64,000 bases of DNA from an uncultured Pseudomonadales bacterium (GCA_964519905.1 CAZFLN010000006.1:4058-68057), one strand, 5' to 3'; shown: positions 2,322-55,108, counted from the first letter of the stretch. Notes: generated from the letters alone by a model not told the origin. Numbers and translations: made by a program.

Positions 2322-2371
2322 TATACTCTAGAGTAGAGTCAATAGTATTTGAAAAAAGAAACGAAGGAAAT

Positions 2372-2743: not shown

Positions 2744-2789
2744 CTGTTTCTGAGTAGATTTTTTGTCAGTCTTTGGTGATACTGTCTCT

Positions 2790-3410: not shown

Positions 3411-3416
3411 ATACGT

Positions 3417-4085
3417 ATGAAAGTAGCAGTCGTCACAGGTGCCTCTAGCGGTTTGGGCAAAGCAGTTGTTGAGCTCTTGGCTCTCGATGGCTGGAAAGTG
3501 TTTGCATTGGCGCGGCGCGTAGAAAATCAGCAGTTCCCAGAGAATGTTGTTCCGATTGTGTGTAATATTCGAGATCTTGACTCGATTGATGCGGCTTTTG
3601 CCCAGATAGGCTCCGAAGTGGAAACGATCGATGTATTAGTGAACTGCGCGGGTCGAGGCTTGGTGAAACCCTTTTCCGAGACCACCCGAGAAGAAATTAT
3701 GGATGTGATTGGCGTAAATCTCAAAGGAAATATGTATATTGCGCAGGAAGTGTACAAGCGCATGATTTCACAGAAACAGGGTCACATTGTGAATGTTGGT
3801 TCGACTTCGAGTTTGCGGGCGCGCGATGCGGAAGTCGTATACGCCGCCAGTAAGTGGGGTTTACGTGGATTTACCGAAAGCCTTCGTCTCGAAGCGCGCC
3901 CGCACGGCATCTTCGTGACTGGAGTCTATCCTGGTGGAATGAGTTCCGATAACTTCTGGAGCGTCGTTCCTGGAAAAGACATGAGCGGATACATGCCCCC
4001 AGAATCAGTGGCTCGCCAAATTGTTGCTGTGGTGAGTGCTCCCAAAGATGTGTCTTTGGCTGAGGTGGTGATTGAGCGAGTGTAA
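3417..4085 (+). CDS. short-chain dehydrogenase/reductase (SDR)
   Basis: TGASSGLGKA Rossmann motif, NCAG, and YAASKWG (YxxxK) active site. Confidence 0.85.
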   Translation: MKVAVVTGASSGLGKAVVELLALDGWKVFALARRVENQQFPENVVPIVCNIRDLDSIDAAFAQIGSEVETIDVLVNCAGRGLVKPFSETTREEIMDVIGVNLKGNMYIAQEVYKRMISQKQGHIVNVGSTSSLRARDAEVVYAASKWGLRGFTESLRLEARPHGIFVTGVYPGGMSSDNFWSVVPGKDMSGYMPPESVARQIVAVVSAPKDVSLAEVVIERV

Positions 4086-6426: not shown

Positions 6427-6700
6427 ACCCAAAGAGTATTTCTCAGGTTTGCTTCACTCCGTTTGCAAACTTATAGTGCACGAACTCTCGGATTTGCATC
6501 AAACCATAGGGTTTCAACCACAAAAAAGGCCGCTTATGCGACCTTTTTTATTGCTGTGAACCACCATTGGGCTGGTTCAAACTTTTTCTCTGATGTTTTC
6601 CAGGCGTTGGAAGACTTCCAAGCCTTCATGCTGAGCCTTGGGGAGGCGTACTCGACCGCTCCGGCTCTAGCTTACTAACTACCCAAACCATAACCCACAC
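6427..6700. repeat. copy 1 of an approximately 270-bp conserved non-coding segment (hairpin plus terminator-like stem with T-run)
   Basis: about 85% identical over the first 100 bp to 13893-13990, with weaker homology continuing to about 6700; internal hairpin aggtttgc...gcaaactt; terminator-like aaaaaaggccgcttatgcgacctttttt at 6522-6549. Confidence 0.6.
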
Positions 6701-6756
6701 CACCTCTGTGAGAAATACCCTTAAAGAGGCGACATGCAATAGTAGGCTAACTCGAT

Positions 6757-8688: not shown

Positions 8689-8810
8689 TTACTAATCTGG
8701 GCAGGTCACCATGAGAGATGTACCAATGAGTATAGCATTTTCGGCAGATATACCAATGACTCAAATTAGATCAAGTCAGCCGTTTTTGAAGCATTCCAAG
8801 AGGTCAAAAA

Positions 8811-11513: not shown

Positions 11514-11518
11514 ATTTG

Positions 11519-13492
11519 TTACACTACCTTGAAGTCAATATCTGCTCGTTCAAGATTGAGAATAGTGTTTGTTTTTAGATCGTCATTATTCGCAAAAACG
11601 CGTTCTAAAAAGATAACCTTTGCAGGTTTTCCTCGTTCGAGAAAATCGATAAAATCTCTGGTAACTGTCCCTTTCAGGCAAACAACCAACTTATTATTTC
11701 CAACAACGAAATATGTCACGCCGGCTTGCTCTGATCGTTTAACAGGTTCAGTGAGTTCGAGGCCAGATTTAAGTATGAGTTCGTACAAGAGATTGCTCTG
11801 GTTAGCATCTGGGCTGGTGTTTTCTACTGAGAGTTTAAGTTGTTGAGTAAGTTGCATTGGATTAACAACAGATTGATTCCAGACTTCGAAGTTACTCGCT
11901 TTGAGTCTAAAAAACTTGACACCGACCTGAGATGCTATTTTTCTAATTCTTTCAATAGATATCTCAGAAATGGTTCTGTACCCCAAACGAAAAGCTTCTG
12001 AGTTTTCATCTATTTTTTCTGGAAGTTGAACCATAATAAAATTTCTATCTTGGCCATCTTTTTCATTTAGTTCTATTAAGGCGTGTGCCGTTGTGGCAGA
12101 CCCAGCAAAGAAGTCCATAACTAAGTCATTCTTACCCGATCCGATACTAATCAGATAGCTGATAAGGTCTTTAGGTTTTGGATAATCAAAAATAATTCCG
12201 TTTTTCTCCAACTCAGAGCGCATTTTCTCTGTTGTTCCAAAGTTCCTTAATACGGACAGGATATTGCGAGCTTTTTCCCTCTCTCTTCTATAATAAAGAA
12301 CACCTTTCTCAGAAAGAAAGAATGACAATCTATCACCGTTATCCATTATCGGGTTACAATTGTTTTCAATAAATTGTTTTAGTTTGTTTACATTAGCCCA
12401 ACCACTAAACAATTTGCACGGCGCAAGTAACTTGCTATTTTTTACAGTGAGTTTACCAATTCTTACTGGGTATGATGCTGACCACTTTTCAGTAATTTGC
12501 CTTGAAATATAGCCAAGCTTCTTCACATCACTGAAATAACCCTCAGGCAGATCAGAGCTTTCTAAACTAATTTCATCTATTGAACATGGGAAACCTATTG
12601 GTAACTCAATCTCGCTTGGTGGATTGGCGGGACCATTTTTTGTAATTGAATTTTCAGCATATCCCTTCCACAAATTACTATCTTTTCTTGTATTAGGATC
12701 AACAACTTGTTCCAATTTAGCCCGGTTGCTATTCTTAGCATAAAGAATGATGTACTCATGGTTTATTTTAACGTCCAGTTGATTGTCAGTATGTCCGTCA
12801 GTGTTCCAGACAAACTGTGTAATAAAGTTTTCTTCCCCAAATATCTCGTCCATTATTATTCTTAGATTGTGGACTTCATGATCATCCATGCTAATAAATA
12901 CCAGTCCGTCTTGTCGAAGCAAATTTCTGGCCAAAAATAATCGGGGATACATCATATTCAGCCAGTCAGAGTGGTAATGCCCGTTATCGCGAGTGTTACG
13001 TCGTAGGGCAGTGTCTTTTAAGAGATCGCCGTTGTCATTGCGTTGGCCAGATTCAGCTTCATAGGTTGTTTTATCTTGCTTGAAATTGTCATTATAAATA
13101 AAATCATTACCGGTGTTATATGGGGGATCAATATAAATCATCTTAATCTTGCCATAATAAGAACGCTGCAATATACGCAAAACTTCTAGGTTGTCACCTT
13201 CTATGAAAAGGTTTTTTGTGGTATCAAAGTTGACTGATTCCTGGGGAAGAGGGGCTAAAGTAGCACTGGTAGTTTTTTGAATTTCCCGGAAAACATTAGA
13301 CTTTCCCGCCCAATTCAATCCATATCTTTCTGTGCCACTGCTTACTTGTTCTCCCAGGGTTTGCTTGAGCTTATCCGGATCAATTTTACCCTCACTGAAT
13401 ACTTCTGGGAATTGTTCCTTCAGTTGTTGGAGTAATTCCTCTTGAGGATTAATTGATTTACCATTCATCTTTGGAGTGTTCATATCACTCAT
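11519..13492 (-). CDS. mod: Type III R-M Mod subunit (N6-adenine DNA methyltransferase)
   Basis: IYIDPPYNTGNDF (DPPY) catalytic motif and conserved EQFPEVF N-terminal region; ORF extends to 13525, start chosen at MSDMNTPK. Confidence 0.85.
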   Translation of the reverse strand: MSDMNTPKMNGKSINPQEELLQQLKEQFPEVFSEGKIDPDKLKQTLGEQVSSGTERYGLNWAGKSNVFREIQKTTSATLAPLPQESVNFDTTKNLFIEGDNLEVLRILQRSYYGKIKMIYIDPPYNTGNDFIYNDNFKQDKTTYEAESGQRNDNGDLLKDTALRRNTRDNGHYHSDWLNMMYPRLFLARNLLRQDGLVFISMDDHEVHNLRIIMDEIFGEENFITQFVWNTDGHTDNQLDVKINHEYIILYAKNSNRAKLEQVVDPNTRKDSNLWKGYAENSITKNGPANPPSEIELPIGFPCSIDEISLESSDLPEGYFSDVKKLGYISRQITEKWSASYPVRIGKLTVKNSKLLAPCKLFSGWANVNKLKQFIENNCNPIMDNGDRLSFFLSEKGVLYYRREREKARNILSVLRNFGTTEKMRSELEKNGIIFDYPKPKDLISYLISIGSGKNDLVMDFFAGSATTAHALIELNEKDGQDRNFIMVQLPEKIDENSEAFRLGYRTISEISIERIRKIASQVGVKFFRLKASNFEVWNQSVVNPMQLTQQLKLSVENTSPDANQSNLLYELILKSGLELTEPVKRSEQAGVTYFVVGNNKLVVCLKGTVTRDFIDFLERGKPAKVIFLERVFANNDDLKTNTILNLERADIDFKVV

Positions 13493-13591
13493 TCTAACAA
13501 CGAACGGCCTGACGTGAAAGCGCAATATGTGTCAAAGTGATATACTTCATAACTTCTTCAAAGCTTTTTAAGCTATAAGTGCAGTTTTTCA

Positions 13592-13614
13592 AATCCTAAC
13601 AATCTAATAGGATT
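13592..13614. other. 7-bp stem hairpin (aatccta...taggatt)
   Basis: inverted repeat seen upstream of the mod start. Confidence 0.3.
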
Positions 13615-13740
13615 GGTTGTAGACATAATCAAGATTTAATCATTATTTCCTTTTTAAGTAAGCGCTTGTTTGAGATATAACGAGCGGATAAGTTAGTTAT
13701 GACCTAATCCCAGTTTTTCGAAACCGGGTATGGTCAAAAA

Positions 13741-13783
13741 ACCTGAAAGATAAACAACCCTCGCTGAGGAGTATCTTTCAGGT
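13741..13783. other. 12-bp perfect inverted repeat (acctgaaagata...tatctttcaggt) with 19-nt loop
   Basis: seen directly; lies between the mod gene and the att repeat. Confidence 0.4.
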
Positions 13784-13873
13784 CATGTCAGGAAACTGGC
13801 ATGCGTGGCAATACGGTACTCGGCGGGGGCTTTTTGCCACTCCCAAACGAGTCGCCTCGAACCTTACGATACT

Positions 13874-13892
13874 TGTGACCCCACGGAGATTC
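13874..13892. repeat. attL: 19-bp direct repeat identical to the tRNA-Glu 3' end
   Basis: tgtgaccccacggagattc is identical to 24009-24027; flanking bases differ. Confidence 0.8.
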
Positions 13893-14145
13893 ACCCCAAG
13901 AGTATTTCTCAGGTTTGCTTCACTCCGTTTGCAAACTTGAAGTGCACGAACTCGCGACTTCGTATCAAACCATGAGATTTCAGCTACAAAAATAGTCGCT
14001 CAGGCGACTTTTTTTGTACCTGTGACCCAAAGGGTTTGGGATTGGAACCAGATTCTTCGTGATCTGGTCGACCTGTTCGACACCTTCCGCCAAGACGTAA
14101 TGCTACCTGATGTTAAGTACTCCGTCTAGGGAATAGAACCGGTGT
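13893..14145. repeat. copy 2 of the approximately 270-bp conserved non-coding segment with intrinsic terminator
   Basis: homologous to 6427-6700; perfect terminator agtcgc-tcag-gcgact plus T7 at 13984-14006. Confidence 0.6.
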
Positions 14146-14149
14146 AATA

Positions 14150-17100
14150 CTATCCCCATTTAGTAGCATGGAGCTCTGCCTCTTGATCTTCTCTGACGGC
14201 TTCACGGGCATAAGAATCAGCGATAGCTTTCAGAATCGAAGCTGTTATTGGCCAGTCAGGTGCTACATTTTCGCTCATCTCCTGATATTTTTCGGCAAGA
14301 GATCTTTCTTGAGTTCCACCATCATACGGACCACGTGTGGTAACGCCTCGGTTATTGTAAACGTAGCTTTGGATGTGCCGATTAATTACGCTGTTGTCGA
14401 GTTCTTCTATGATCTTTCTTGCCGCTGTGTGTGGCCAGCAACCATCAGTATCATATGGCGTCTTTGCTAGCACGCTTGCTAATTCCAAGTCGCAACCGGT
14501 TGTGAGACTCTGCTCGGCACAAGATTTTCTGGCAGTTTCAACCCAAGTAGATAGCTCCTTCGCGTCAAGAGCCCCTTCTTCATTTGTTCCAGGAAATCCT
14601 TCCCAAGAATCAAGTACGTTTTTTGCATTTCTCGCCAAGTTACTGGATTGATCAGAATTAAGACCCGCATGTTTCGGGTTGGCCTTCCTATCGTCCCTTT
14701 TGTAAACCATGCCGACAAGGTCACAAAAGAATGCCGGATCTTTTTCGAGCAGCTTGTGAATCGAGAAGGATGTTCTTTCGTTGTCCCTCATTCCTCGGAA
14801 AAGCGACGCGCAAGGCCATTCCAGCTTAGCAATCTCTTCATCCGTGAGTTCTTTGCGCTCTTGCAGCTGCCTGAAAACGTTGGATAGGTAATATTCGGTC
14901 ATGCTGTCTGCATGGCGATCTTCAGAGGGAATGGCAAGTAAATCGAGAATAATTTGTCGGAGCAGATTGCTTGGCAATGAAACAACATGATCGCCGGCGA
15001 TTTCCAATGCTGCCTGAGGTCGTTTGGCGAGAAGAAACTTTTCAGCGGCAATTTGCGCGTTCTCGTTCGAGTGACCTGGCGTATAACCTCTGGCATGTTT
15101 CCAGTATTCTGCTTCAAGATCAATTCCAGCTTTTTCGACTTTCAACCAAGTATCTGGCCCTTCAGGGAGTCCAAGATATAGTTGCGCTGCGATCTCTGGT
15201 GTGTAAATGCCCTCATCTTTCAGTTTTTGGATAGCCGCTTCAACCCAAGCCACACCTTCTTTTTCTGTTCTTCCCCAAGAATAGGAAGAGATAAGCAGAT
15301 GGTTTTTTGCGTGTTTGGCAAAGAAGAAGAGTACTCGATCGTCCTCTTCTTCATTCTTGATGGCTTTTCCCAGCGCTTGTCCCAAAACTCCAACGTATGA
15401 AATACCTGAAGAAAACTTGACGATCTCTTCAAGTGGTACTTTGTCTAGTACTTCTCTGGCAGCTTTTCCTCTTTGTACCGCAACTTCTTTGTCACCATCG
15501 GTCCGATCTCTACGACTCACCTCAGGCAAGTGTGGCCACGGATTATCTAGCAACCAACCAACTCGATCGAGTACATACTCTGGAGTAAATTTGGTGAGTA
15601 GCTTTTTGAGCGGCATGAGGTTCTTCCGCTCGGGCTTTTCGCCGTAACTACTAAGCCAATTCATTGCTTCCCGAATATGTGAACAGAGGAGTTTTACTTC
15701 ATCAGGTGAGAGTTGGTCTTTGTCCATTTGGGTGAGAGTATTCATGAGAGCGGTTTGAATGTAATCTGGAAGGCGAGTAAATTCGTCCATAGCGTCAAGG
15801 ATGTTTACTCTTGTGCACGCCAAACTCTCAAGTCTATTGACCAATTCTTTCTGATATTCCTGTGGATTTGTTTCCGGATCAAAGCCAGACCTCAAGATGC
15901 CGTAGTCCCGCCATCTGAAACGATACGCTTCAGTGAAGTGGCCCCCTGAATGATAAGACTTAGTAAAATTCCAAACGAGCTTTGCATCTTTTGATATGAG
16001 CCTGTCAATCTCTCGTATTCTTTCTGGTGCCGCTGCATAAGTTTGAGGCCAGATGGGCATGAAGATATCTGTCAAACTGTTTGCCGGTCGATTGCTGTAT
16101 CTTCCCCCTGTGTCAATTGCGGCCATTCCTCTGAGAATTTCCACTGCACGAGAGAAATATGTAGAACTCCATGCAAGCGCTTCTAGTGCCCAAAGCAACC
16201 CACTGTGATTGCAGTCTCCAAACGGGCCGCCGTCATCGTCTTTCATCAAGTCAGAAAAAACTTGAGGATGCTTGGCAAGTTGTTTGCGTACCACTTCCAG
16301 AAAAACGTCGGGCGCTGCTTCTGCTAACAGTGGGGAAATATCCTTGAGTGAGGCCCAATGCTCCATTGTGGTCGCGGCCTCCAAAACCTCAGCTACGGTT
16401 TGATTGATCGTATCTTGAAGAGAAACGAGATTTGTCGCTCGGTCTCCCAATACTGAAACCATTGCCAGAGAGCCACAAAGTCCTTCCCTCAGCCAGTCGG
16501 AATGTAGTGGGGCTTTACCATAAACGGCTGCAGCCCATCGCTGATCAGCGGGTAGCTCATATTTAGGATCTTTTTTCAGCAAGACATCCTTCACGACCTG
16601 CTGATACCTCTGAAATATCGCCTCGTCGACATAGCGAGCAATGAGAAACCATGTGTCAATCGGTGACTTCAATACCCAAACATTTCCAACCTTGAGCAAT
16701 GGCGGATCTGCCACTGTTAACAGGTTCCCCAGCTCTGAAAGATAATCCGTATACTTTTTACTAGCGATATATTCAACGATTTGTTGGTCTCCATCTTTCT
16801 TTTCATTCCATGCACCAATGAAAAGAACGGGTAAAAGCAAGTGAGTGTTTTGAGGATTCACCCAAGGTGGATCTGTTATAGCTGGTGAAGGCGACATACG
16901 ACGTCTCAAAACTGGTAGACTCCTGCCGGAATCTCTGGAAAGTTTTCGGGCCTCAACCTCTCCAACACCGATTTTTTTAAGATTCTCCTGAATAGTGCCA
17001 ATAAGTGGTCGAGGAAGGCGCCCAGCATCTCGCGTACTTGAAACGTTTGTTCCTGTACCCAGGAAGACATGATGGCCCTTTCTTACGGCCAAACCTACTA

Positions 17101-17932
17101 AATCATTGCACTCGATCGTTACGGCCAAGATGAGCGAGGTTTGGTATGTATCAAGAATATGTCGTAGATCAGCGGGGTTCTCGACGTAAAGACTTTTGGA
17201 GAGTGAGCGCAATCTCTCGTCATCTGGTAGTCTGGAGAAAGAACTGTATAGAAAAGCAAACGGTTCGTCAGCAGAATCACCTTGAAGCGACAGAATAGCA
17301 GGTGGCTTGTTGAGCCAGCCATGAACAATCTCTACATGATTGTCTCTTCCACCCAGCACAACTTCAGCCGAAAGTGGTGGGTTTGTTGATTCCGACCATT
17401 CTTCCCAAAAGCTCTCCAAGCTCCGTATTCCGCCTGCGCTCGCCTTTCCCAGGCGTTTGGCAAGCCATAAACCCACGGCAGGCGCCTGATCGAGCCAGAG
17501 TGCAAGGTCATCGGCATCGATAGCCCTTACTGATTTCCAATGGTTGGATGCAGCCTTGCTGGTTGCCCACTCATGTCGTTTTGGCCAACGTCGTGGCGTT
17601 ACAAAAACGAAAGATGTATCTTTGGGTGTCAGAGCCAACGAGTCAGCGACCCTTTTCGTGTAATCATCGTCAGCTTTTTTCTTGGGCGACTCCTTTGTGC
17701 CCATTTCCCAACCAGAAACGCCATCAGGGAGATAGGGGGATGATGATGCAATGTTCAACCTGCCGTCCCATCCGGGAGTTGCCACACTGTCTTGTTCAGG
17801 GAAAGAAACTTCACTAACAGAATTAGCTGTTGCCAAAACAAGGCGTCGTAGGAGTTGGGGCAAAAAAGAGGCGCAATCTCTTTGATTACTTTCACTCCAA
17901 GACTTGATATCACCGGCACTTATCCATTGCAT
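14150..17932 (-). CDS. 1260-aa protein of unknown function (island cargo)
   Basis: long uninterrupted ORF; no Walker A/B, no HxH, no obvious catalytic signature; weak D...ExxxK pattern (GWDGRL...WEMGTK) in the first 90 aa. Confidence 0.6.
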   Translation of the reverse strand: MQWISAGDIKSWSESNQRDCASFLPQLLRRLVLATANSVSEVSFPEQDSVATPGWDGRLNIASSSPYLPDGVSGWEMGTKESPKKKADDDYTKRVADSLALTPKDTSFVFVTPRRWPKRHEWATSKAASNHWKSVRAIDADDLALWLDQAPAVGLWLAKRLGKASAGGIRSLESFWEEWSESTNPPLSAEVVLGGRDNHVEIVHGWLNKPPAILSLQGDSADEPFAFLYSSFSRLPDDERLRSLSKSLYVENPADLRHILDTYQTSLILAVTIECNDLVGLAVRKGHHVFLGTGTNVSSTRDAGRLPRPLIGTIQENLKKIGVGEVEARKLSRDSGRSLPVLRRRMSPSPAITDPPWVNPQNTHLLLPVLFIGAWNEKKDGDQQIVEYIASKKYTDYLSELGNLLTVADPPLLKVGNVWVLKSPIDTWFLIARYVDEAIFQRYQQVVKDVLLKKDPKYELPADQRWAAAVYGKAPLHSDWLREGLCGSLAMVSVLGDRATNLVSLQDTINQTVAEVLEAATTMEHWASLKDISPLLAEAAPDVFLEVVRKQLAKHPQVFSDLMKDDDGGPFGDCNHSGLLWALEALAWSSTYFSRAVEILRGMAAIDTGGRYSNRPANSLTDIFMPIWPQTYAAAPERIREIDRLISKDAKLVWNFTKSYHSGGHFTEAYRFRWRDYGILRSGFDPETNPQEYQKELVNRLESLACTRVNILDAMDEFTRLPDYIQTALMNTLTQMDKDQLSPDEVKLLCSHIREAMNWLSSYGEKPERKNLMPLKKLLTKFTPEYVLDRVGWLLDNPWPHLPEVSRRDRTDGDKEVAVQRGKAAREVLDKVPLEEIVKFSSGISYVGVLGQALGKAIKNEEEDDRVLFFFAKHAKNHLLISSYSWGRTEKEGVAWVEAAIQKLKDEGIYTPEIAAQLYLGLPEGPDTWLKVEKAGIDLEAEYWKHARGYTPGHSNENAQIAAEKFLLAKRPQAALEIAGDHVVSLPSNLLRQIILDLLAIPSEDRHADSMTEYYLSNVFRQLQERKELTDEEIAKLEWPCASLFRGMRDNERTSFSIHKLLEKDPAFFCDLVGMVYKRDDRKANPKHAGLNSDQSSNLARNAKNVLDSWEGFPGTNEEGALDAKELSTWVETARKSCAEQSLTTGCDLELASVLAKTPYDTDGCWPHTAARKIIEELDNSVINRHIQSYVYNNRGVTTRGPYDGGTQERSLAEKYQEMSENVAPDWPITASILKAIADSYAREAVREDQEAELHATKWG

Positions 17933-18003
17933 ACGGCATCATTCTAGTCCCAATTTTCCCCGAAGTGAATCAGTAATGTTGTGCATCAAAACTGTGTAAA
18001 ATC

Positions 18004-18381
18004 TTGAGTATGCGCGTAAAACGAGGGAGACCATCCCTTCTCACGGAATCTGTCCAAAATCAATTAAAACAAGCGTTTCTGGTCGGCGCAACCGACGACG
18101 AAGCTTGTTTAGTGGTGGGAATTGCCCCAAGCACACTCTATAAATTCCAGGAGAAAAACCCGTCATTTTCGGAGCAAAAACGACTATGGAAGCGTTCTCC
18201 AGTTTTTCGCGCCAAGGCGACGATCGTCCGCAATCTCGACAATGTCGATGTGGCCAAGTGGTACTTGGAACGTAGAGCCAAAGATGAGTTTTCGACAAAA
18301 CACGAGTTGGAAGGGATTTCCGACAATACACCAATCCAAGTAATATTTAGGGGAAAAGATGAAGACAAGGCAAACGTTTAG
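18004..18381 (+). CDS. HTH protein resembling phage terminase small subunit
   Basis: KRGRPSLLTE...GATDDEACLVVGIAPSTLYKFQEKNPSFSEQ matches the conserved N-terminal pattern of P27-type TerS and related HTH proteins. Confidence 0.5.
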   Translation: MSMRVKRGRPSLLTESVQNQLKQAFLVGATDDEACLVVGIAPSTLYKFQEKNPSFSEQKRLWKRSPVFRAKATIVRNLDNVDVAKWYLERRAKDEFSTKHELEGISDNTPIQVIFRGKDEDKANV

Positions 18382-18635
18382 AAATTCACAAGATCATTGA
18401 GCGTTTTGCCCAAGGCCTTGGCGATCTTCCACAAGACAAAAACGGTTGGATGATACTTCCCGGCTTCAAGATGAGCGACGTATGCGGAATGAAGCTTGGC
18501 TCTACCGCCCAGCTCTTCCTGTGAGATACCTTTGCTTTTCCGAGCGTCACGAATATTACCAGCTAATCTTTGGGTGAATTCTTTACGGACTTTGGTGTTG
18601 TCTCCGTCTGTTTCAGGGAGATTTATCGTATTCAT
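18378..18635 (-). CDS. XRE-family HTH transcriptional regulator
   Basis: KGISQEELGGRAKLHSAYVAHLEAGKYHPTVFVLWKIAKALGKTLNDL is a classic Cro/C1-type HTH; start taken at MNTINLP (ORF extends to 18767). Confidence 0.7.
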   Translation of the reverse strand: MNTINLPETDGDNTKVRKEFTQRLAGNIRDARKSKGISQEELGGRAKLHSAYVAHLEAGKYHPTVFVLWKIAKALGKTLNDLVNF

Positions 18636-18708
18636 TTCAACAATTATTTTCCTGGTGATTAGAGGCTTACGCCATGGCGTAGTCATCAAGTTAGTGATAT
18701 GATCTCTG

Positions 18709-19590
18709 GTGATGAAGAAGACCAAAAAAGCATTCGCCCACGGTGTGAATTGGAAATCTCGGCCCATTCAGTTACGGGCAGGTTTCTTAATTCTTGTCCT
18801 CTCGCTCATTCTCTACAAAGCAGTTCCCGGAGTGGTTCGTGCCTACGACGTTCAAAAGGTAAACCAAGCCATTCAGGAAGCCGAGACATTGGCAAAAGCA
18901 GGACAAACCGAGGAAGCTGTATTGGTACTCCAATCTACGTCCTCCCGATACATGACCCAAGAACAGGCGGAGAAAATCACCTCTCAGTTTGGTGAGTTGG
19001 CAAACCCACCGGCCAAAGGTATGAGCTTCGATGATTTCGATCAAATGTTGAAAGATCGAGGAGAACCAGGAATCTTAGGCTCACCTGCGCCAAAACCGTC
19101 ACAGGTACCAAAGCAAATACCAACGCCCTTACCCACAGCGCTTCCAACCGTAAACGCCAATCCACAAGTGCGCTGCTATTACGACAGTCGCTGCGGTGGT
19201 ACGAAGATCACAACCAAAGACGAATGCCTGAATACTACCTGTTGCTATGACGGTTCAACTTGGAACATTAAATCGAAGACGGATTGCCAGAAACAATCGG
19301 ACGAGGCGGCTCAAAAACAACTCGACGCCTGGAATACATCGCAATCCCAGATGCAGGCCGAAATTGAAGCCCTACAGAAGGCCACGGAAACCATTACTCA
19401 ACAAAACGCTCAAACCCAAGCTGAGCTTCTCGAGGCATGTCGACAGCAAGCACAAAAAACCTATGCGCAACCGGCACAAGGGAGTCAAACTTCCACAACT
19501 GGTTACGTTGTTGGTGAATCACCGGAGCAGCGACAAAAGCTTAATCAAGCTATGCAGCGTTGCCTGGATCTGTATGGAGGAGGACAATGA
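18709..19590 (+). CDS. membrane-anchored, Cys-rich, Q-rich secreted protein
   Basis: N-terminal TM (FLILVLSLILY); Pro-rich linker; 8 Cys in 60 aa; divergent from the XRE gene. Confidence 0.45.
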   Translation: MMKKTKKAFAHGVNWKSRPIQLRAGFLILVLSLILYKAVPGVVRAYDVQKVNQAIQEAETLAKAGQTEEAVLVLQSTSSRYMTQEQAEKITSQFGELANPPAKGMSFDDFDQMLKDRGEPGILGSPAPKPSQVPKQIPTPLPTALPTVNANPQVRCYYDSRCGGTKITTKDECLNTTCCYDGSTWNIKSKTDCQKQSDEAAQKQLDAWNTSQSQMQAEIEALQKATETITQQNAQTQAELLEACRQQAQKTYAQPAQGSQTSTTGYVVGESPEQRQKLNQAMQRCLDLYGGGQ

Positions 19591-19826
19591 AAAAGTCGCA
19601 CCTCCTATTCATCGCAGTTGCTCTGTTGGCGTATTATCTGGGATATCGTTCAGGAATCGGCAACCAGGTGGCTCGATATGGCGATACTGGGTTGCCAAAG
19701 AATTGCCGGGCGCTAATTGCCACCAACATCAGTGGTTTTAAGTATAGCCAGTACACCGCAGAGGAAGCGCTTTACTCTATCGACCGTAACTGTGGTCCAG
19801 CTGGGCTTATTTGGAATGAACGATGA
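19587..19826 (+). CDS. small membrane/secreted protein
   Basis: GGAGGAGG RBS then ATG overlapping the upstream stop (ATGA); signal-like MKKSHLLFIAVALLAYYLG. Confidence 0.4.
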   Translation: MKKSHLLFIAVALLAYYLGYRSGIGNQVARYGDTGLPKNCRALIATNISGFKYSQYTAEEALYSIDRNCGPAGLIWNER

Positions 19827-19831
19827 TGCAT

Positions 19832-20596
19832 TCAAGCTATTTTGCCACCGACTTCTTTCCACAATTCTTGTAAACCATTTTTTACTTCTTCTGTCGTTTC
19901 CACTTCATTTGACAAGAGTAAGGCAATTTTCAAACATGCTCCATAGGAAACCATGATGCCCATATGCAAATCCAACTCTGCATAACCGTCGAGTGTGATT
20001 TGTGCCAGGTGGCCAAGAATATCACTGGGTGATGTGTGATTTTTTCTATTACCAGCAATATATATCTTAAAAAGGGTTTGCATTTCGGTTTTAGGGATGA
20101 CTTTCTCCTGAACAAGCCAAGCTACTACTTGTTCCACGCTTTGGCCAGCCCAATTATGGCGGCCATTTTTCAACTTAGCCGGAATGGCATCATATGAGTC
20201 ATTGATCCTTTTTATTTCCTCTGGTTCGATTTCTACACCTGCTGACAGTAAAAAATCCATGTCTTCTTTTTGTTCTACTGCATCAAATTGGATGAATTGC
20301 CGTGAATACGCTTCTTTTCCCTTCTTTTCAATATAAAACATATAGACCATATCCTCTAAAATCCTTCTTGATAGGTCGAGAATAGAGCCGCTGTACACAG
20401 TGCGCAGAGAGGGATCTTCTTCTGCCAGATTGGCCAAAGTGATACTGGTCTGGAGAGTTAAATAATCCTTCCGAAATACCCCCTCAAGGACTCTTCCAAA
20501 GAGGGATTTATACGTGTTTGGTCCTGTTGCCAAGGGGTAGCTAATATCAAGTAGCTGGAGGGATTTTTTACGAAAATCGACTTGTGATTTTTCCAT
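19832..20596 (-). CDS. hypothetical protein
   Basis: 254-aa ORF; no motif recognised. Confidence 0.45.
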   Translation of the reverse strand: MEKSQVDFRKKSLQLLDISYPLATGPNTYKSLFGRVLEGVFRKDYLTLQTSITLANLAEEDPSLRTVYSGSILDLSRRILEDMVYMFYIEKKGKEAYSRQFIQFDAVEQKEDMDFLLSAGVEIEPEEIKRINDSYDAIPAKLKNGRHNWAGQSVEQVVAWLVQEKVIPKTEMQTLFKIYIAGNRKNHTSPSDILGHLAQITLDGYAELDLHMGIMVSYGACLKIALLLSNEVETTEEVKNGLQELWKEVGGKIA

Positions 20597-20640
20597 TGAG
20601 AGGATTATACTCCGGCGTACGGACAGTCAGGTTCAGATAT

Positions 20641-22128
20641 ATGGCAAATTATTGGAGCAACGAGCTTTTAGGAAGGTATGACCCGCAAGATGGTTGGCTT
20701 GGGATTGATTATCGACGGCACTTTCTAAATCCACACCAAACAATGATGACTTACATCCATGAACAAGCCCACGGCATACTTTGCAACGGTACTGAATATG
20801 GGCAGGCAACGAAGACGCTTCTACGATTTCTTCCGCATGCAACAGCAATGTCTGAGGAGCAACGCGCCGCCATCTTTAAGAAACTTCATGATTCACAGTT
20901 TTATGTTCAGGAGGCAGCAGCAACTCTTGCTCCAATTTTTGGGCTGAGAGATGCCAAAGGTCCGGCGGTTGCACGCAAATGGGCCAAAGACAATTTGCCA
21001 GATGATTACTACAACCGTGTTGAGGGGCTTTTTTTTGCGTTGGAATTTGGAGCAAGATACAGAGAACTATTCCTACAACAATCATCGCATTTAGCGATGC
21101 ATACGAAGATTCGTAAAGATGTTGTTGCTTACGATCTACTAAGAAACCCTGAACAATTTATCGACTATTTGTCCCAACCAGATAATATTCCTAGTGACAG
21201 GTTTCAAAAACTTACACAGGCATTTTGGGCTAAGCCCCATCTACCAACTCGCTCAGATGAAGAAGTAGCAAAGCATGCCAACCTACCCCTTTTCGAAATC
21301 TTGACCAAAGATGAAGTCGCAAACTTCCTCAACTATGTTGCAGAGTTTTGTGGACTACCAGTTCGAACTGATGCAACACGCATAAAAGATCCATTGACAC
21401 CAGAAGCTCACGTAAAAGAACTGGCAGAAAACGTTCTTATCGCGAATATGAATTTCAACTTACCTGACCGTGCTATGTGGCTTAAACAAACAGATGATTT
21501 GAAATTTATTTCTGACAAAGTTGATGCGGTTATTATCAACAGAGTCGATCCTTCATCCAACCTCGCTGATAATTTCAAGATTGTTATGGGGCGAGAAGCT
21601 GACCTTGGAATTATTACATTCCAAAAAACGGGCGAAGTATATTTAACAGGTTTGTCTGAAATGGAAGCATCAACAATCCTTAAGCAAGAGTTAAAAAATG
21701 CGACACTTATCACCAAGTGGGGGTTATATGAGCCCGGAAATGAAAACGTTTCTTTCTTCCCAAGTATCCGTCGACCAGATGTAGTTATTTACAACACACT
21801 TGGCGACATGCGCGTGTCAATGCAAAAGTATTTGGAGCAACATGACTGTGTTTGCTTCAATGCCCAAGCTTCTCCAGGAAGCCCGATACATACTTTTGTG
21901 ATCGTAGATCAGAAAGGTACTCTTCATATGTTGAACGCCATGGGAGTTCAACCGATAAACTCCTTTTTGTCTGATAACAAAGAACATCTGCATGTTGTTC
22001 AGCCAGATCAATCAACCGTTAATCCAGCCCACTACAACAATGTCCTTTCTGTTTGGAATGACTTGCCATGGGATGTCGATTGGTATGCCTCCATGCTTGA
22101 TGGTGAAAATGTAATTAATCGCACCTAA
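20641..22128 (+). CDS. HExxH-motif protein (possible metallopeptidase)
   Basis: YIHEQAHGI near the N-terminus; start at MANYWSN within ORF 20584..22128. Confidence 0.5.
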   Translation: MANYWSNELLGRYDPQDGWLGIDYRRHFLNPHQTMMTYIHEQAHGILCNGTEYGQATKTLLRFLPHATAMSEEQRAAIFKKLHDSQFYVQEAAATLAPIFGLRDAKGPAVARKWAKDNLPDDYYNRVEGLFFALEFGARYRELFLQQSSHLAMHTKIRKDVVAYDLLRNPEQFIDYLSQPDNIPSDRFQKLTQAFWAKPHLPTRSDEEVAKHANLPLFEILTKDEVANFLNYVAEFCGLPVRTDATRIKDPLTPEAHVKELAENVLIANMNFNLPDRAMWLKQTDDLKFISDKVDAVIINRVDPSSNLADNFKIVMGREADLGIITFQKTGEVYLTGLSEMEASTILKQELKNATLITKWGLYEPGNENVSFFPSIRRPDVVIYNTLGDMRVSMQKYLEQHDCVCFNAQASPGSPIHTFVIVDQKGTLHMLNAMGVQPINSFLSDNKEHLHVVQPDQSTVNPAHYNNVLSVWNDLPWDVDWYASMLDGENVINRT

Positions 22129-22288
22129 GTTACACTTGTAAGCAATTTTGGTAACAAAATCCTGATTCAGACCCCATTTATTCCAGCAGTTTTTGCGATA
22201 ATTTCTTGTGTTGACAGATCAATCAATTTGCTCGTTTTCATTCCAATTCACACACGGTGTAAATTGACGTATATATCAATCTTTTCTG

Positions 22289-22318
22289 TTGACACCAATG
22301 GTATGCGGATGGTTATAT
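22289..22318 (+). promoter_or_regulatory. sigma70-like promoter (TTGACA-18-TTATAT) for the small-ORF/recombinase operon
   Basis: ttgaca 22289-22294, 18-nt spacer, ttatat 22313-22318. Confidence 0.45.
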
Positions 22319-22337
22319 TCGGACTAGGAAATCTACC

Positions 22338-22496
22338 GTGACCATCGCAAAAGCAAGAAAATTACTGGGAAAATCGGCGGAGCTGCTGACTGATGAACAG
22401 GTGCAGCTCAAAATTGACGTGGCTGAGCAGCTGAAGGAGTTGTTCTTTGATTTTTTGCTCAAGAGTTTAAGACAGAAAAAGGCATACCAATCTTGA
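22338..22496 (+). CDS. 52-aa small protein (GTG start) upstream of the serine recombinase; homolog of 62859..63044
   Basis: AGGAAA 6 nt upstream of GTG; IAKARKLLGKSAELLTDEQVQLKIDVAEQLKEL aligns with IEKAQAILRKSKHSFSDDQTERLIDVMEKFSSAI. Confidence 0.4.
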   Translation: MTIAKARKLLGKSAELLTDEQVQLKIDVAEQLKELFFDFLLKSLRQKKAYQS

Positions 22497-22503
22497 GGAA
22501 ACT

Positions 22504-24048
22504 ATGAAATACTTGGGTCCGATGCGAAAAAGAGTTGTTATATACATCCGAGTATCAGACCCTGGTCAAATCGATAACAATAGCCTTGAAACTCAAGAGA
22601 AATACTGTCGTAAAAAAGCCAGTGAAATGGGCGCTGAAGTTGTTGAGATATTTCGAGAGGAAGGTGTCTCTGCAAAGACAATTGACAAAAGGCCGGAACT
22701 GAGGCGACTTCTACAGTTTTGTAGCCTCAAAAAGAATGATATTCAAGCAGTTATTGTGTATAGACTGGACAGGTGGTCGAGAAATGTAACCGATGCATTG
22801 CAGGCAAAGTTTCTCCTTGCCAAGTATGGTGTTCAGCTTATTTCGGCAACTGAAGGCATAACAGACGATCCTCAAGGCGAATTTCTTGGAACGATCACTT
22901 TCGCTATGGCTCAGCTCGACAATCAACTCAAGGCCGCACGCGTCTCAGATAACATGAAGACTATGTTTCGAAATGGTTTGTGGCCATGGAAGGTCCCACC
23001 TGGTTATAAACGTCCATTCAAAACCAAAGAGGAAAGCAAAGGTAAACCAGCCATAATCGACCCCGACATCGGTCCAATTCTTCATGAGCTGTTTGTTGAG
23101 GCATCCAAAGGGATTTTTTCCAGGAAACAACTTGCTGAAAAGACAAATTTACTTGGATACGCGGATTTCAAAGGGAGGAAAATCAATGAAAAGGTAATCG
23201 TTGACATTCTTTCTGACACCTTTTACCACGGGCTTATGCATGCGCCGAGATGGGATGAGTACGCTGTCGGTTTGCATGAACCCCTGATTGATGAACTCAC
23301 TTGGAAAAAGGCGTATGCTTCAGTAATTAAGAAGCGAAAATATATGTATCAAGATACTGTGGATTACCCACTCAAGGGCACGATCAAGTGTGAGCTTTGT
23401 GACCACTTCATGACCTCGAGCAATCCCAGAGGGCGGACCAAGAACTACAAGCATTACGAATGTGGGAATCCAAAATGCCGTCGGTCACGTATCCTGGCGT
23501 CTTCAGCACATGAGCAGTTTGCATCCATTCTTTCCCGGGTCAAACCCGCTCCAGACGTCATGGTGTTGTTTACGGATATGGTATTTTCCGAATGGGATTC
23601 AGTGGTGAGTACCGTTGCGACACTCACTCAAACATTGGACAAGAGAATTGCCGACCAAAAAAAAGAACTCGATAGGATCAGTAGGTCTTGTGACCGAGGT
23701 ATATATACAGAGGCTGAGGCCAAGGAAAAAGCTGATGAAGTACGTCGAGAAATCACTATCTTGGAGGTTGAAAAAACTGACTCAGTGATAGCTGGATACG
23801 ATGCCAAGATCGTCAAGGCGTTTACCGAAAGATTCCTTGAACACTTTGACGAACTATGGAAACAACTTGATCTGCCCAAGCAGCAAGCTCTCCAGGTGAA
23901 AATATTTCCCAACGGTATCTTGTGTGACAAAAACAAGAATATTCGAACCGCAGAAATGAGCGAATGCTTCCAGCTAATTGAGGCTCTTGGAAGCGAAAAT
24001 GTCGAAAATGTGACCCCACGGAGATTCGAACTCCGGTTACCAGGATGA
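22504..24048 (+). CDS. large serine recombinase (integrase)
   Basis: VVIYIRVSDPGQ resolvase catalytic Ser region plus recombinase domain plus Cys-rich zinc-ribbon (CELCDHF...CGNPKC) plus coiled coil; last 38 nt overlap the tRNA-Glu gene. Confidence 0.85.
   Translation: MKYLGPMRKRVVIYIRVSDPGQIDNNSLETQEKYCRKKASEMGAEVVEIFREEGVSAKTIDKRPELRRLLQFCSLKKNDIQAVIVYRLDRWSRNVTDALQAKFLLAKYGVQLISATEGITDDPQGEFLGTITFAMAQLDNQLKAARVSDNMKTMFRNGLWPWKVPPGYKRPFKTKEESKGKPAIIDPDIGPILHELFVEASKGIFSRKQLAEKTNLLGYADFKGRKINEKVIVDILSDTFYHGLMHAPRWDEYAVGLHEPLIDELTWKKAYASVIKKRKYMYQDTVDYPLKGTIKCELCDHFMTSSNPRGRTKNYKHYECGNPKCRRSRILASSAHEQFASILSRVKPAPDVMVLFTDMVFSEWDSVVSTVATLTQTLDKRIADQKKELDRISRSCDRGIYTEAEAKEKADEVRREITILEVEKTDSVIAGYDAKIVKAFTERFLEHFDELWKQLDLPKQQALQVKIFPNGILCDKNKNIRTAEMSECFQLIEALGSENVENVTPRRFELRLPG
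24009..24027. repeat. attR: 19-bp direct repeat (tRNA-Glu 3' end)
   Basis: identical to 13874-13892. Confidence 0.8.
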
Positions 24049-24083
24049 GAACCTGGCGTCCTAGGCCTCTAGACGATGGGGCC
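24011..24083 (-). tRNA. tRNA-Glu (anticodon CTC)
   Basis: reverse complement folds as GGCCCCA acceptor, GTCTAGAGGCCTAGGAC D-arm, CCAGG-TTCTCAT-CCTGG anticodon arm, CGGAG-TTCGAAT-CTCCG T-arm, discriminator A; CCA not encoded. Confidence 0.85.
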
Positions 24084-24238
24084 GCGTGTGGCGCGGGAGC
24101 AATTGCTCAGACCAGACAGGATTGAATTATATCGCATCAGAGAAGGAATGTGAATTCAGGCTTTTTCCAAGATTTGAGAATTTTTGCAAGCATTTTGTTT
24201 GATTCATTTGCGATAGTGCTGGAAACAAAAGGAGGCAC

Positions 24239-54760: not shown

Positions 54761-55108
54761 GAACGGCTCCTTTTTGGTATGAGTCGACCCCCAATTTTGA
54801 GGGCTGTATTGGTTATAGCGTGTTGAGCAGATATTTGCAATGCGGTTGGAGAGCGAGTGCGTTGATGGTGCACCTATTGTACCAAAATTGGAACACCTTA
54901 CTTGAGTACCTGAGGAAACTTACTGAAACTGTCTCACGATGGTTCGATGTGCCAGTCCCTGCCTACCAGATTTCGGTCTAAATTATTCCACCTTAGAGGG
55001 AATAGAACATTGTTAGATGCGACAAATTCTTCGGGTTATTTTATAATCAAAGTATATAAAACGGAAGATGAAAATAGAGACTTCCGTCCCAATTTGGATT
55101 GAAACACA

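Follow-up and report, generated by a model that had tools for sequence, protein, structure and literature searches.

SaPIs, which are known phage satellites, use their small terminase subunit (TerS) to interfere with the packaging of their helper. The PLE of Vibrio cholerae, a satellite of about 18 kb, uses a large serine recombinase, the directionality factor of which is a small protein, and encodes its own replication initiator together with several anti-ICP1 effectors. Among defence proteins, Avs4 is an antiviral STAND NTPase that recognises the phage portal. Phage-inducible chromosomal islands (PICIs) have been defined by their size and components, with an integrase at one end, for which the tyrosine and serine types are exchangeable, a regulation module with homology to alpA, merR or stl, a primase-replicase module, a gene for capsid morphogenesis or size redirection, a small terminase that lacks its large partner, and induction by a helper phage whose particles package the island; their median size is 9.5 kb (PMC10085698). 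PICMIs are minimalist satellites of the Vibrionaceae, inserted beside fis by a tyrosine integrase, in which a primase and AlpA are present, terS is absent and excision requires iolg, a small gene that adjoins the integrase (PMC10803314).

Here we describe an island carried by an uncultured, ultra-small, Patescibacteria-like bacterium, contained in a stretch of 64,000 nucleotides (the window, from whose first letter all positions are counted). A preliminary description of the locus had likened it to a PICI that hijacks helper packaging; the open reading frames described there, including the integrase at 22504-24048, were all recovered. We consider it somewhat more probable than an even bet that the island is a PICI-like phage satellite of its Patescibacteria-like host.

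A mobile island at a tRNA-Glu gene

The features of the island are as follows.

14021-14028, no strand: attL crossover core TGTGACCC, the left island end
14022-14129, plus: recombinase tail, 35 codons and stop (VTQRVWDWNQILRDLVDLFDTFRQDVMLPDVKYSV*)
14150-17932, minus: 1260-aa cargo protein (PHROG 18693 along its full length, 2.8e-159)
17933-18009, no strand: promoter region of the divergent 1260-aa gene and terS
18004-18381, plus: orphan TerS homologue, 125-aa ORF (PHROG 4102)
18378-18635, minus: XRE-family HTH regulator, conserved 85 aa (Pfam HTH_3, 4.3e-14), ORF open to 18767
18668-18681, no strand: perfect 14-nt palindrome TACGCCATGGCGTA, candidate XRE operator
18709-19590, plus: 293-aa membrane-anchored, Cys-rich, coiled-coil protein, kept in all three islands
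19560-19826, plus: small protein of 79-88 aa with an N-terminal hydrophobic segment, variable cargo
19832-20596, minus: DUF5677 protein, 254 aa (PF18928, 7.1e-9), variable cargo
20641-22128, plus: 495-aa HExxH...E protein, ORF open from 20584, variable cargo
22338-22496, plus: 52-aa protein, directly 5' of the recombinase
22504-24048, plus: large serine recombinase
24009-24016, no strand: attR crossover core, TGTGACCC as at attL
24010-24083, minus: tRNA-Glu(CTC), the target gene (ARAGORN, Rfam)

The island is a discrete element spanning 14021-24016, and its length of 9,988 bp, measured between the TGTGACCC cores at 14021 and 24009, bears out the initial estimate of about 10 kb. Its ends were set by three independent insertions, namely the window copy and two others, L001 and L002; similarity to these begins exactly at the attL core, while the flanks differ. 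The window copy and L001 share 86.7% nucleotide identity across 14021-24084, with flanks that are unrelated or ~68% similar, and L002 is inserted at a non-tRNA site. The island is mobile: divergent hosts carry it, and one copy has reached a non-tRNA site.

Compared with L001 and L002, the island genes are under purifying selection (dN/dS 0.02-0.1 at dS 0.5-1.6), with the exception of three near-identical genes. L001 carries and L002 lacks three cargo genes, which encode the 79-88-aa, DUF5677 and HExxH proteins; the other genes are conserved in both. Because it is conserved in two other copies with low dN/dS, the gene set lies above chance level. Scans of the ORFs with Pfam, PHROG and NCBIfam returned no gene for a large terminase, for structural or lysis proteins or, as far as recognisable, for replication, and no ORF matched a primase, replicase, helicase or Rep. 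Neither origin-like or iteron-like repeats nor a gene for capsid morphogenesis or size redirection were found in the island, TerS being the only match to a head/capsid PHROG.

By its domain matches, the protein encoded at the right end is a large serine recombinase/integrase. It contains a Resolvase domain (PF00239, 6.5e-31) with the catalytic Ser motif in YIRVSDPGQ and a Recombinase domain (PF07508) at 21.4 bits (cut-off 21.1), and matches PHROG 95 (3.5e-73); the zinc ribbon (Zn_ribbon_recom, PF13408) is sub-threshold, and CcrB/XisF-like NCBIfam matches fall below cut-off. For insertion the recombinase uses a TGTGA(CCC) core that lies at the extreme 3' end of tRNA-Glu, with the tRNA gene left intact. 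This core is all that attL and attR have in common in the three copies and seven sister islands, with no long direct repeats.

In the integrated state the recombinase comprises 514 aa, its ORF crossing attR and taking its final 11 codons from the tRNA gene. The tail at the left end is predicted to join it in frame in the excised circle; it shows 7 synonymous and 1-2 non-synonymous differences from L001 and L002, has a homologue in frame at attL of seven more islands, and in L181 is contiguous with the recombinase gene. As the recombinase frame spans attP, integration strips a conserved 35-residue C-terminal tail, and since that tail is encoded beyond attP, the full-length recombinase is obtainable only from the excised circle. 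The 52-aa protein (dN/dS 0.02), a homologue of which is found immediately 5' of the recombinase gene in nearly all of 57 related loci, is a candidate recombination directionality factor. No JGI metagenome contig contained the exact predicted attP junction, and the recombinase family was absent from 2.9 million IMG/VR contigs, so that these collections gave no sign of excision or encapsidation.

The small terminase homologue and its neighbours

The 125-aa protein had been described as TerS-like from its N-terminal pattern, which does read MSMRVKRGRPSLLTESVQNQLKQAFLVGATDDEACLVVGIAPSTLYKFQEKNPSF. Instead of matching transposase-type HTH families alone, it matches four PHROG TerS profiles, 4102 (2.9e-19), 309, 1482 and 24579; the terminase models of Pfam and NCBIfam did not match it, and Pfam returned only a sub-threshold HTH_Tnp_1_2. 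Its orthologues begin at the ATG at 18010, and from the sequence the gene product probably starts there and is 123 aa long.

Relatives of this protein in phages lie beside the large terminase (TerL). The homologue directly precedes TerL in phage contigs L003-L006, abuts it in Streptococcus phages phiZJ20091101-4 and IPP23, and in 39.5-kb phage contigs a protein 47% identical to the island TerS (P0006) overlaps a Terminase_3 gene. IMG/VR contained 136 relatives; the best viral relative is 57% identical and set in a TerS-TerL-portal-capsid block. The downstream ORF (n=53) was Terminase_3 in 30 cases, Terminase_6N in 16, GpA in 3 and TerL_ATPase in 1, placing a large terminase directly 3' of the homologue in up to 50 of the 53 viral contigs. 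The top phage-database matches were the Streptococcus satellite prophages Javan594 and Javan560 (42-44% identity), where the homologue is located at the integrase-distal end. For the AF2 model (pLDDT 69), the top PDB fold match was Sf6 gp1 (probability 0.98, with a weak E of 0.09 and a TM of 0.4), and 2ao9 was also among the top matches. Together, these comparisons assign the 125-aa protein to a genuine phage small-terminase family, as had been proposed. The island terS is an orphan with no adjacent TerL, and is under purifying selection (dN/dS 0.06-0.07 among the three island copies). The region between it and the 1260-aa gene remains 93% conserved among the three islands despite saturated synonymous sites, and contains a promoter-like site on the minus strand (17969-17941).

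The XRE regulator, 95% identical in L001 and L002 (dN/dS 0.016), is encoded divergently from the membrane-anchored 293-aa protein, in line with the arrangement first described. It matched no AlpA, MerR or Stl profile in the general profile scans, and the 293-aa protein had no family match in Pfam, PHROG, NCBIfam or PADLOC. The palindrome between the two genes occurs exactly once in the window, and the intergenic region around it is 94% conserved. There is no second copy at the terS promoter, so that a circuit from the repressor to terS is not evident.

Most of the cargo is probably related to anti-phage functions or phage interaction. The 1260-aa protein comprises an N-terminal α/β domain, a second α/β domain that lacks Walker motifs, and an extended α-solenoid; 378 homologues were found at E <= 0.001 among 8,000 candidates scored, nearly all of them, among the matches listed, ~1,260 aa long. 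The top PDB fold match of its AF2 model (pLDDT 88.6) was 8dgf, Avs4 bound to the phage portal (E 5e-8, with a TM-score of only 0.18). Both proteins present, in the same order, an N-terminal effector-like α/β domain, a central α/β domain and a long helical-repeat, sensor-like region. Unlike the STAND NTPase Avs4, the 1260-aa protein has no Walker A/B motif of the kind that the central NTPase of that class contains, and PADLOC gave no Avs profile match and only a faint PD-Lambda-4_A. The model thus suggests a candidate Avs-like anti-phage sensor, the likeness being confined to fold and architecture.

The 495-aa protein is predicted to be zinc metallopeptidase-like and to represent an uncharacterised family, for which 117 representatives were found and in which H40, E41, H44 and E91 are invariant across 37 diverse members. 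It had no match in Pfam, PHROG, NCBIfam, PADLOC or the PDB; a profile of its five closest relatives was likewise unmatched, as were ten distant members in Pfam. The earlier suggestion that it works, ImmA-like, with the XRE repressor was not supported: no Peptidase_M78/ImmA (ImmA/IrrE, M78) profile matched a protein that displays just the generic HExxH...E motif, and three genes separate it from the XRE gene, which L002 retains while lacking the HExxH gene. Homologues in L010 and L012 occur in other contexts, without the island XRE.

Sister islands and the role of TerS

Islands with recombinases 46-52% identical to that of the window measure 3.5-10 kb and usually occupy tRNA-Glu. In one position they carry three unrelated TerS types, along with defence cargo such as an NgoPII restriction-modification pair or a SLOG+NUDIX pair. 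A GP3_package-type TerS was found in L013 and 8 metagenome loci of this family, a PHROG 1206-like type in 7 loci, and another type adjoins the 1260-aa homologues of L175 and L176. Minimal islands, 3.5-4.8 kb long, are reduced to the recombinase and its tail, the 52-aa homologue, TerS and defence-like cargo. No recognisable TerS was present in ~40% of the related recombinase islands with sufficient sequence.

These results bear out the satellite reading in part. The orphan TerS, the XRE regulator, the integrase and the discrete, mobile 10-kb island agree with what was first proposed; a primase/replicase, a capsid-morphogenesis gene and evidence of excision or packaging are absent. No helper phage was identified, and terS was the only phage gene that the viral contigs examined had in common with the island. 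As a satellite ('hitcher'), the island would be excised upon helper infection or induction by the recombinase together with the 52-aa protein, the latter acting as directionality factor. Its TerS would bind a pac site in the island DNA and recruit the large terminase of the helper, and helper capsids would thereby receive island DNA. In a new cell, full-length recombinase expressed from the circle would integrate the island at tRNA-Glu. The Avs-like 1260-aa sensor, the DUF5677 and HExxH proteins and the membrane protein would be cargo, and the XRE protein may act through the 18668-18681 palindrome as a repressor of, at a minimum, its own divergent operon.

Rather unlikely, in our view, is an ordinary integrative defence island in which, with no packaging involved, the TerS-like protein was co-opted to bind DNA in an accessory role, either as an architectural or directionality factor of the serine recombinase or as a transcription regulator. 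The N-terminal 45 residues of TerS do correspond to a Hin-recombinase-type GRP-arm and HTH (a match to the Hin DNA-binding domain), and the TerS-like gene of many sister islands is found immediately 5' of the 52-aa/recombinase pair. This reading would also accommodate the sister islands that lack TerS and the absence of a replication module and of any packaging sign in the JGI attP and IMG/VR searches. However, TerS aligns with phage TerS over its full length, at 40-57% identity and including the C-terminal region past the HTH, and the same family occurs in Streptococcus satellite prophages. Moreover, the conserved small neighbour of the recombinase is the 52-aa protein rather than TerS, and three unrelated TerS families in one slot fit helper-specific packaging selection better than a recombinase cofactor.

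It is improbable that the orphan TerS is a defensive decoy, selected not for transfer but for keeping the large terminase of incoming phages from packaging their DNA, by titration or misdirection. The defensive look of the cargo and, by analogy, the interference of SaPI TerS with helper packaging would be in keeping with a decoy, but the linkage of TerS to a self-mobile recombinase backbone, down to elements of 3.5 kb, is left unexplained. Furthermore, interference is compatible with transfer, making this partly a sub-case of the satellite explanation.

Mobilisation by conjugation instead of by phages appears quite improbable. L002 adjoins type IV secretion genes (VirB4/TraG-like, PrgI, M23 peptidase) and L177 has a 1260-aa homologue within a similar cluster, but such genes do not neighbour the window or L001 copies, and the clean-ended L002 island resembles an insertion into a conjugative element. 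In the island, Pfam, PHROG and NCBIfam revealed neither a relaxase nor a coupling protein, and nothing resembling an oriT. Finally, a decayed prophage that kept terS and int by chance is very improbable and already largely refuted by conservation: in L176 a 1260-aa homologue and a serine recombinase do have TerS and a large terminase as neighbours, but three copies share a backbone with clean ends and dN/dS <0.1 despite dS up to 1.6, the island holds no pseudogenes or structural-gene fragments, and its compact architecture is conserved in sister islands.

Comparison with described satellites

Compared with PICIs (SaPIs, Javan594/560), the island is of similar size (~10 kb, near the 9.5-kb median) and likewise combines an integrase at one end (here the right), an HTH regulator, a small terminase without a large one and accessory/defence cargo, with no structural or lysis genes; with the Javan594/560 prophages it also shares the TerS sequence family. 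It differs in having neither a primase-replicase nor a capsid-morphogenesis gene, in using a large serine rather than a tyrosine recombinase, in its XRE regulator, with no AlpA/MerR/Stl homology by the tests run, and in its host, which is Patescibacteria-like as opposed to Bacillota or Proteobacteria; its induction and packaging by a helper are putative.

PLE resembles the island in integrating via a large serine recombinase, and the island's candidate directionality factor is small as well. In contrast, PLE is larger and has a replication initiator and anti-ICP1 effectors of its own; PHROG, Pfam and PADLOC scans yielded no PLE-type matches and so revealed no sequence relationship. With PICMIs it shares a tiny gene content and the absence of a capsid remodelling gene, its 52-aa gene being the analogue of iolg by position; the island family has terS without a primase, whereas PICMIs have a primase and AlpA without terS.

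The modelled TerS, with its N-terminal HTH and probable helices behind it, may be similar in layout to Sf6 gp1 and P22 gp3, and sister islands encode a P22 gp3-type (Pfam GP3_package) protein. In contrast to TerS of the Sf6/P22 type, the island copy has no adjoining large terminase, and its oligomerisation, pac binding and TerL stimulation are putative. Like known satellites, the island and its sister islands carry defence-type cargo, and a phage satellite is its most likely identity, one of a kind not described before in Patescibacteria-like bacteria.

Island limits and the recombinase gene split by integration

We delimited the 9,988-bp island using two further copies. The first, L001 (Logan SRR24236060), is 86.7% identical to window 14021-24084 and also lies inside a tRNA-Glu(CTC), with a left flank unrelated to the window and a right flank only ~68% similar. 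The second, L002 (JGI 3300048836), aligns to window 14022-14140, 14150-19586 and 22180-24019, and occupies a non-tRNA site beside type IV secretion genes. All three copies share the left end (T)GTGACCCAAAGGG and the right end GTCGAAAATGTGA, so that the element runs from 14021 to the core at 24009-24016. TGTGA(CCC) is the sole sequence common to both junctions, which fits the expectation for a serine recombinase. The crossover falls within the final bases of the tRNA-Glu(CTC) gene (24010-24083, minus strand), into which the recombinase ORF extends with its 3' end and which is left intact by the insertion. The predicted empty site reads ...TTTTTTTGTACC joined to TGTGACCCCACGGAGATTCGAAC, and the predicted attP junction, GTCGAAAATGTGACCCAAAGGGT, had 0 exact matches in JGI metagenome contigs.

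A 19-nt exact direct repeat of the tRNA 3' end (13874-13892 and 24009-27) was first read as attL/attR. Its left copy was ruled out as attL by the comparison with L001 and L002, which puts the island start at 14021, and the repeat is part of a neighbouring remnant element. Upstream of the tRNA-Glu gene, a promoter-like site at 24154-24126 (minus strand) matches 11/12 consensus positions, and the intrinsic terminator (14009-13994, minus strand) is now 10 kb from its gene because of the island. As the island lies between the two, read-through from the tRNA would go antisense into the recombinase gene.

The gene called an integrase in the preliminary description (22504-24048) is present, and its type can be specified as a large serine recombinase (Resolvase, 6.5e-31; PHROG 95, 3.5e-73). 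In the integrated form, its ORF reads ...ENVENV followed by TPRRFELRLPG and a stop, these final 11 codons being supplied by the tRNA; in this form the protein has 514 aa, 503 of them in the core. When the right end is joined to the left, as in an excised circle, the frame runs on for 35 codons, VTQRVWDWNQILRDLVDLFDTFRQDVMLPDVKYSV and a stop, encoded at 14022-14129. This tail differs among the three copies by 7 synonymous and 1-2 non-synonymous changes. Seven sister islands carry a homologous tail peptide, VTL[ST][LI]PHP[NH]Q[IL]I.D[LIV].DLFNTF..., at their left junction. In each of these islands the peptide shares its frame with a GTGAC core, which at the right junction is likewise read in frame within the recombinase gene. 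Their exact sizes, given by the junctions, are 3,535, 3,837, 3,864, 3,959, 4,766, 5,783 and 6,350 bp. At L181, a locus of the same recombinase family, the gene is unbroken with its tail and encodes a 538-aa protein.

Since the tail is joined in frame only across attP, the full-length recombinase could be made only from a circular or attP-intact form, and the tail may have a role in directionality or stability. A frame cut by integration, together with a conserved tail available only in the circle, is a candidate mechanism for direction control in serine integrases, which is of interest for genome-engineering tools. A shallow literature search found no precedent for attP inside a serine integrase gene. 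At L217, another locus of the family, three tail-coding copies (117-221, 1633-1710, 2897-3001) lie upstream of one recombinase gene, pointing to tandem or remnant islands arrayed at a single site.

The small terminase and its exchange among sister islands

The 125-aa ORF with the N-terminus quoted in the preliminary description was found at 18004-18381 (plus strand); its orthologues begin at ATG 18010, giving 123 aa. Its proposed identity as a phage small terminase subunit (TerS) was borne out by profile searches, which matched four PHROG 'terminase small subunit' families (best PHROG 4102, 2.9e-19, residues 3-103). Pfam, NCBIfam and PADLOC made no terminase call for the protein, Pfam returning only a sub-threshold HTH_Tnp_1_2 match.

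The genomic context of its homologues is that of small terminases. In phage contigs of 39.5 kb, a 47%-identical homologue runs into the start of a Terminase_3 gene. IMG/VR contains 136 relatives, and in most of the 80 IMG/VR loci examined an ORF of 390-690 aa begins a few bases from the homologue's stop; among these downstream ORFs (n = 53), 30 matched Terminase_3, 16 Terminase_6N, 3 GpA_ATPase and 1 TerL_ATPase. The closest viral relative (57% identity) is the first gene of an apparent TerS-TerL-portal-capsid block, read from gene order and size, in which Pfam confirmed only the large terminase (TerL). The best matches among deposited phages are two 'satellite phages' of Streptococcus, Javan594 and Javan560. 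Both measure 9-10 kb, encode an integrase and carry the homologue at their distal end; Javan594, the one examined, also has a replicative helicase. In the next-best deposited matches, Streptococcus phages phiZJ20091101-4 and IPP23, the homologue adjoins the large terminase. Judged by these contexts, the 125-aa protein is homologous to small terminases, and at the sequence level its family assignment is secure.

Residues 1-45 comprise a Hin-type GRP arm and a helix-turn-helix (HTH), as found by PDB profile search, and an AlphaFold model of the protein (pLDDT 69) retrieved the Sf6 gp1 small terminase first and the nonameric phage protein 2ao9 second, with weak statistics. In the island, terS is followed by a convergent XRE gene, with no large terminase next to it. 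Its dN/dS of 0.06-0.07 at dS 0.5-1.1 indicates purifying selection.

A related island, L013, is inserted in a tRNA-Glu(TTC) and carries a 1260-aa gene, a recombinase and a 52-aa gene (in the window at 22338-22496, a candidate recombination directionality factor) that are 75%, 50% and 48% identical to those of the window, together with a TerS of a different family, Pfam GP3_package. A metagenome scan yielded 57 loci. Their full-length recombinases are 46-52% identical, and a 52-aa homologue lies directly upstream of the recombinase in nearly all of them. The recombinase ORF ends at or inside tRNA-Glu in 29 of 36 scorable loci; the others lie at tRNA-Arg (2), tRNA-Ile (1) or non-tRNA sites (3), or on a contig too short to call (1). 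Immediately upstream of the 52-aa/recombinase pair, 8 loci carry a GP3_package protein and 7 a protein of 170-185 aa with weak but consistent matches to TerS PHROGs (1206, 6299, 2606). No recognisable small terminase was found in three tail-delimited islands (L183, L203, L205), and TerS is present in ~19 of ~33 informative loci. Among the cargo of sister islands are an NgoPII restriction-modification pair and a pair of SLOG/LOG and NUDIX genes. A search among GTDB species representatives found nothing for the recombinase, and its family had no relatives in IMG/VR with either a narrow or a broad profile; the latter absence counts for little, because small elements lacking hallmark genes are hardly called viral.

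Homologues of the 1260-aa protein also occur in two other serine-recombinase-bounded islands, both with a LexA-like repressor, restriction-modification genes and a ParB-methylase. One of them, L175, has a TerS-like gene only (2960-3433), and the other, L176, a TerS-like gene and a large terminase (1307-3269; PHROG 38, 3.5e-84). They may mark stages between a prophage, or an island that forms capsids, and an island with TerS alone. At a third locus, L177, the homologue lies in a type IV secretion cluster without TerS.

Cargo, regulator and neighbouring elements

The 1260-aa protein is a probable anti-phage cargo. PHROG 18693 matches the entire protein (2.8e-159), which has 378 homologues at E <= 0.001 among 8,000 candidates scored, nearly all of those listed being ~1,260 aa long. 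These homologues have no Pfam domain, except for an N-terminally fused XRE HTH in a few longer members. The AlphaFold model is confident (pLDDT 88.6). In it, an N-terminal alpha/beta domain, where D56, E76 and K86 are invariant, is followed by another alpha/beta domain, which lacks Walker motifs, and by a helical solenoid of ~750 residues. Avs4 in complex with a phage portal is the closest fold in the PDB (E 5e-8), and generic solenoids come next; TM-scores are low. PADLOC gave a faint but collinear match to PD-Lambda-4_A.

The XRE gene (XRE/HTH_3, 4.3e-14; 18378-18767, minus strand) is divergent from its partner at 18709-19590, as described earlier, and convergent to terS; only its C-terminal 85 aa are kept in orthologues. 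The partner's 293-aa product carries a membrane anchor at its N-terminus and is Cys-rich in the middle. The two divergent intergenic regions show 93-94% conservation. A perfect 14-nt palindrome, unique in the window, lies between the XRE and 293-aa genes and is not repeated at the terS promoter. An origin-like repeat search of the island found no meaningful tandem repeats or iterons.

The 495-aa HExxH protein is present at 20641-22128 and belongs to a family with 117 representatives of ~495 aa, in which H40, E41, H44 and E91 are invariant, a gluzincin-type motif. Searches against known families and solved structures gave no match, including a PDB search with a profile and Pfam searches of distant members. 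The suggestion that it is an ImmA-like partner of the XRE repressor did not hold: together with a DUF5677 protein and a 79-88-aa protein, it is missing from L002, where the XRE protein is 95% identical, and its homologues occur in unrelated contexts, so it is better regarded as variable cargo. One such homologue (35% identical) is carried, with a Cys-rich surface protein resembling the Cys motif of the 293-aa protein, by another serine-recombinase island (L010, 2755-14993) next to YchF in a syntenic relative that shares the window gene order S41 peptidase, SSB, S6, YchF.

The segment from the 293-aa gene to DUF5677 (window 18709-20596, L001 10703-12587) is near-identical between the two copies, with dS of 0.01-0.06 against 0.5-1.6 for the rest of the island. 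This contrast indicates a recent recombinational exchange of a three-gene cassette (293-aa, 79-88-aa, DUF5677) between islands.

Directly left of the island lies a second element without a recombinase (6427-14021), which carries the following features.

Cargo of the left-hand element
6757-8688, minus strand: OLD/AriA-like ATPase
8811-11513, minus strand: res gene of a type III restriction-modification pair
11519-13525, minus strand: mod gene of the same pair
13701-13815, plus strand: LOOT RNA (Rfam RF03000, 77.8 bits), at the recombinase-distal cargo end

At its left boundary, the downstream flank of tRNA-Glu is repeated as a 137-nt copy (83% identical), followed by a TGTGAACC core and a degenerate recombinase-tail ORF (6556-6678); at its right boundary a 19-nt tRNA-Glu 3' fragment (13874-13892) precedes a second copy of the 137-nt flank. 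The element is collinear with positions 11494-20743 of L181, in which this cargo comes after the intact 538-aa recombinase gene, and is probably a tandem sister element that has lost its recombinase module. The LOOT RNA occupies the equivalent place in L181 (20607-20721), so this orphan RNA motif appears to travel with such mobile elements; we found no functional literature on it. At the window's opposite end, a low-GC block (55000-64000; 0.36-0.40 versus ~0.46 elsewhere) contains large ORFs without a family match (969 and 288 aa), an ATPase (60006-60686) and a tyrosine recombinase-like gene (60869-61780), and may be a further mobile element or a Xer-type recombinase locus.

A possible satellite life cycle and known systems

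The comparative-genomic finding is solid at the level of sequence, and from it we infer a satellite life cycle: with somewhat better than even confidence, the island is a phage satellite resembling phage-inducible chromosomal islands (PICIs). Such a self-integrating island would depend on the capsids and large terminase of a helper phage, its own small terminase would turn the helper terminase toward island DNA, and defence cargo would be brought along. We favour this reading because the TerS assignment is secure, the orphan gene is kept under selection, unrelated TerS families replace one another at the same position in sister islands, and islands of 3.5-4 kb exist with little else. No helper phage was found. 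The main rival, an ordinary integrative defence island whose TerS-like HTH protein serves the recombinase or controls transcription, would account for the Hin-type arm and for the sister islands that lack TerS; the exchange of TerS families at one position fits it less well, and it appears rather improbable. A decoy-defence role of TerS, conjugative mobilisation of the island and a prophage remnant are less likely.

Extending the satellite reading, we tentatively consider, at well below even confidence, that the island is the largest member seen here of an undescribed Patescibacteria family of 'TerS-only' satellites, with no self-replication module and with the recombinase split acting as a direction switch. 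These elements would be 3.5-10 kb long, have a backbone made up solely of a serine recombinase, a small protein resembling a directionality factor and a TerS open to exchange, plus defence cargo, and be the smallest satellites known. They could possibly spread without a replication module of their own, via helper or host replication, or by in situ packaging and recombinase rescue in the recipient. A full-length enzyme made only upon excision would constitute a built-in switch of recombination direction.

The host, to judge by YchF and by the sources of 1260-aa homologues, is Patescibacteria-like (Microgenomatia-like), and no close relative of it is found among the sequenced species representatives. 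Among these, the window YchF reaches 58% identity at best, its top five matches (55-58%) coming from Woesebacteria, Paceibacterota/Pacebacteria and Levyibacteriota genomes; the 1260-aa homologues with a named source belong to Parcubacteria, Moranbacteria, Margulisbacteria and cyanobacteria. Little is known about the phages of these ultra-small episymbionts or the routes by which such bacteria exchange genes. Phage satellites have been described chiefly in Proteobacteria and Bacillota, and more recently in Mycobacteriaceae (Actinobacteria) and archaea; our full-text literature search found no report of one in Patescibacteria, and in the two papers that contained both terms the phylum is named a single time. 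If these islands are satellites, helper-dependent packaging would operate in Patescibacteria and would move defence genes between divergent hosts. Copies of the island are 87% identical in genomes with ~68% similarity between their chromosomal genes. In that case, the sister islands of 3.5-4 kb would also lower the known minimum for a satellite.

The island combines a serine recombinase that acts at the tRNA-Glu 3' end with a reading frame across attP and a TerS that can be exchanged, and it lacks a replication module. PICIs are defined by an integrase, a regulator, a primase-replicase, capsid morphogenesis genes and TerS, with a median size of 9.5 kb (PMC10085698). By this definition, the integrase, TerS and size of the island fit, in line with the PICI-like layout proposed in the preliminary description; the regulator appears to be of a different type, and replication and capsid genes are missing. 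The island would thus act as a PICI does without being a canonical one. PICMIs, which have a primase and lack terS (PMC10803314), are its mirror image, and with PLE it has only the serine integrase in common.
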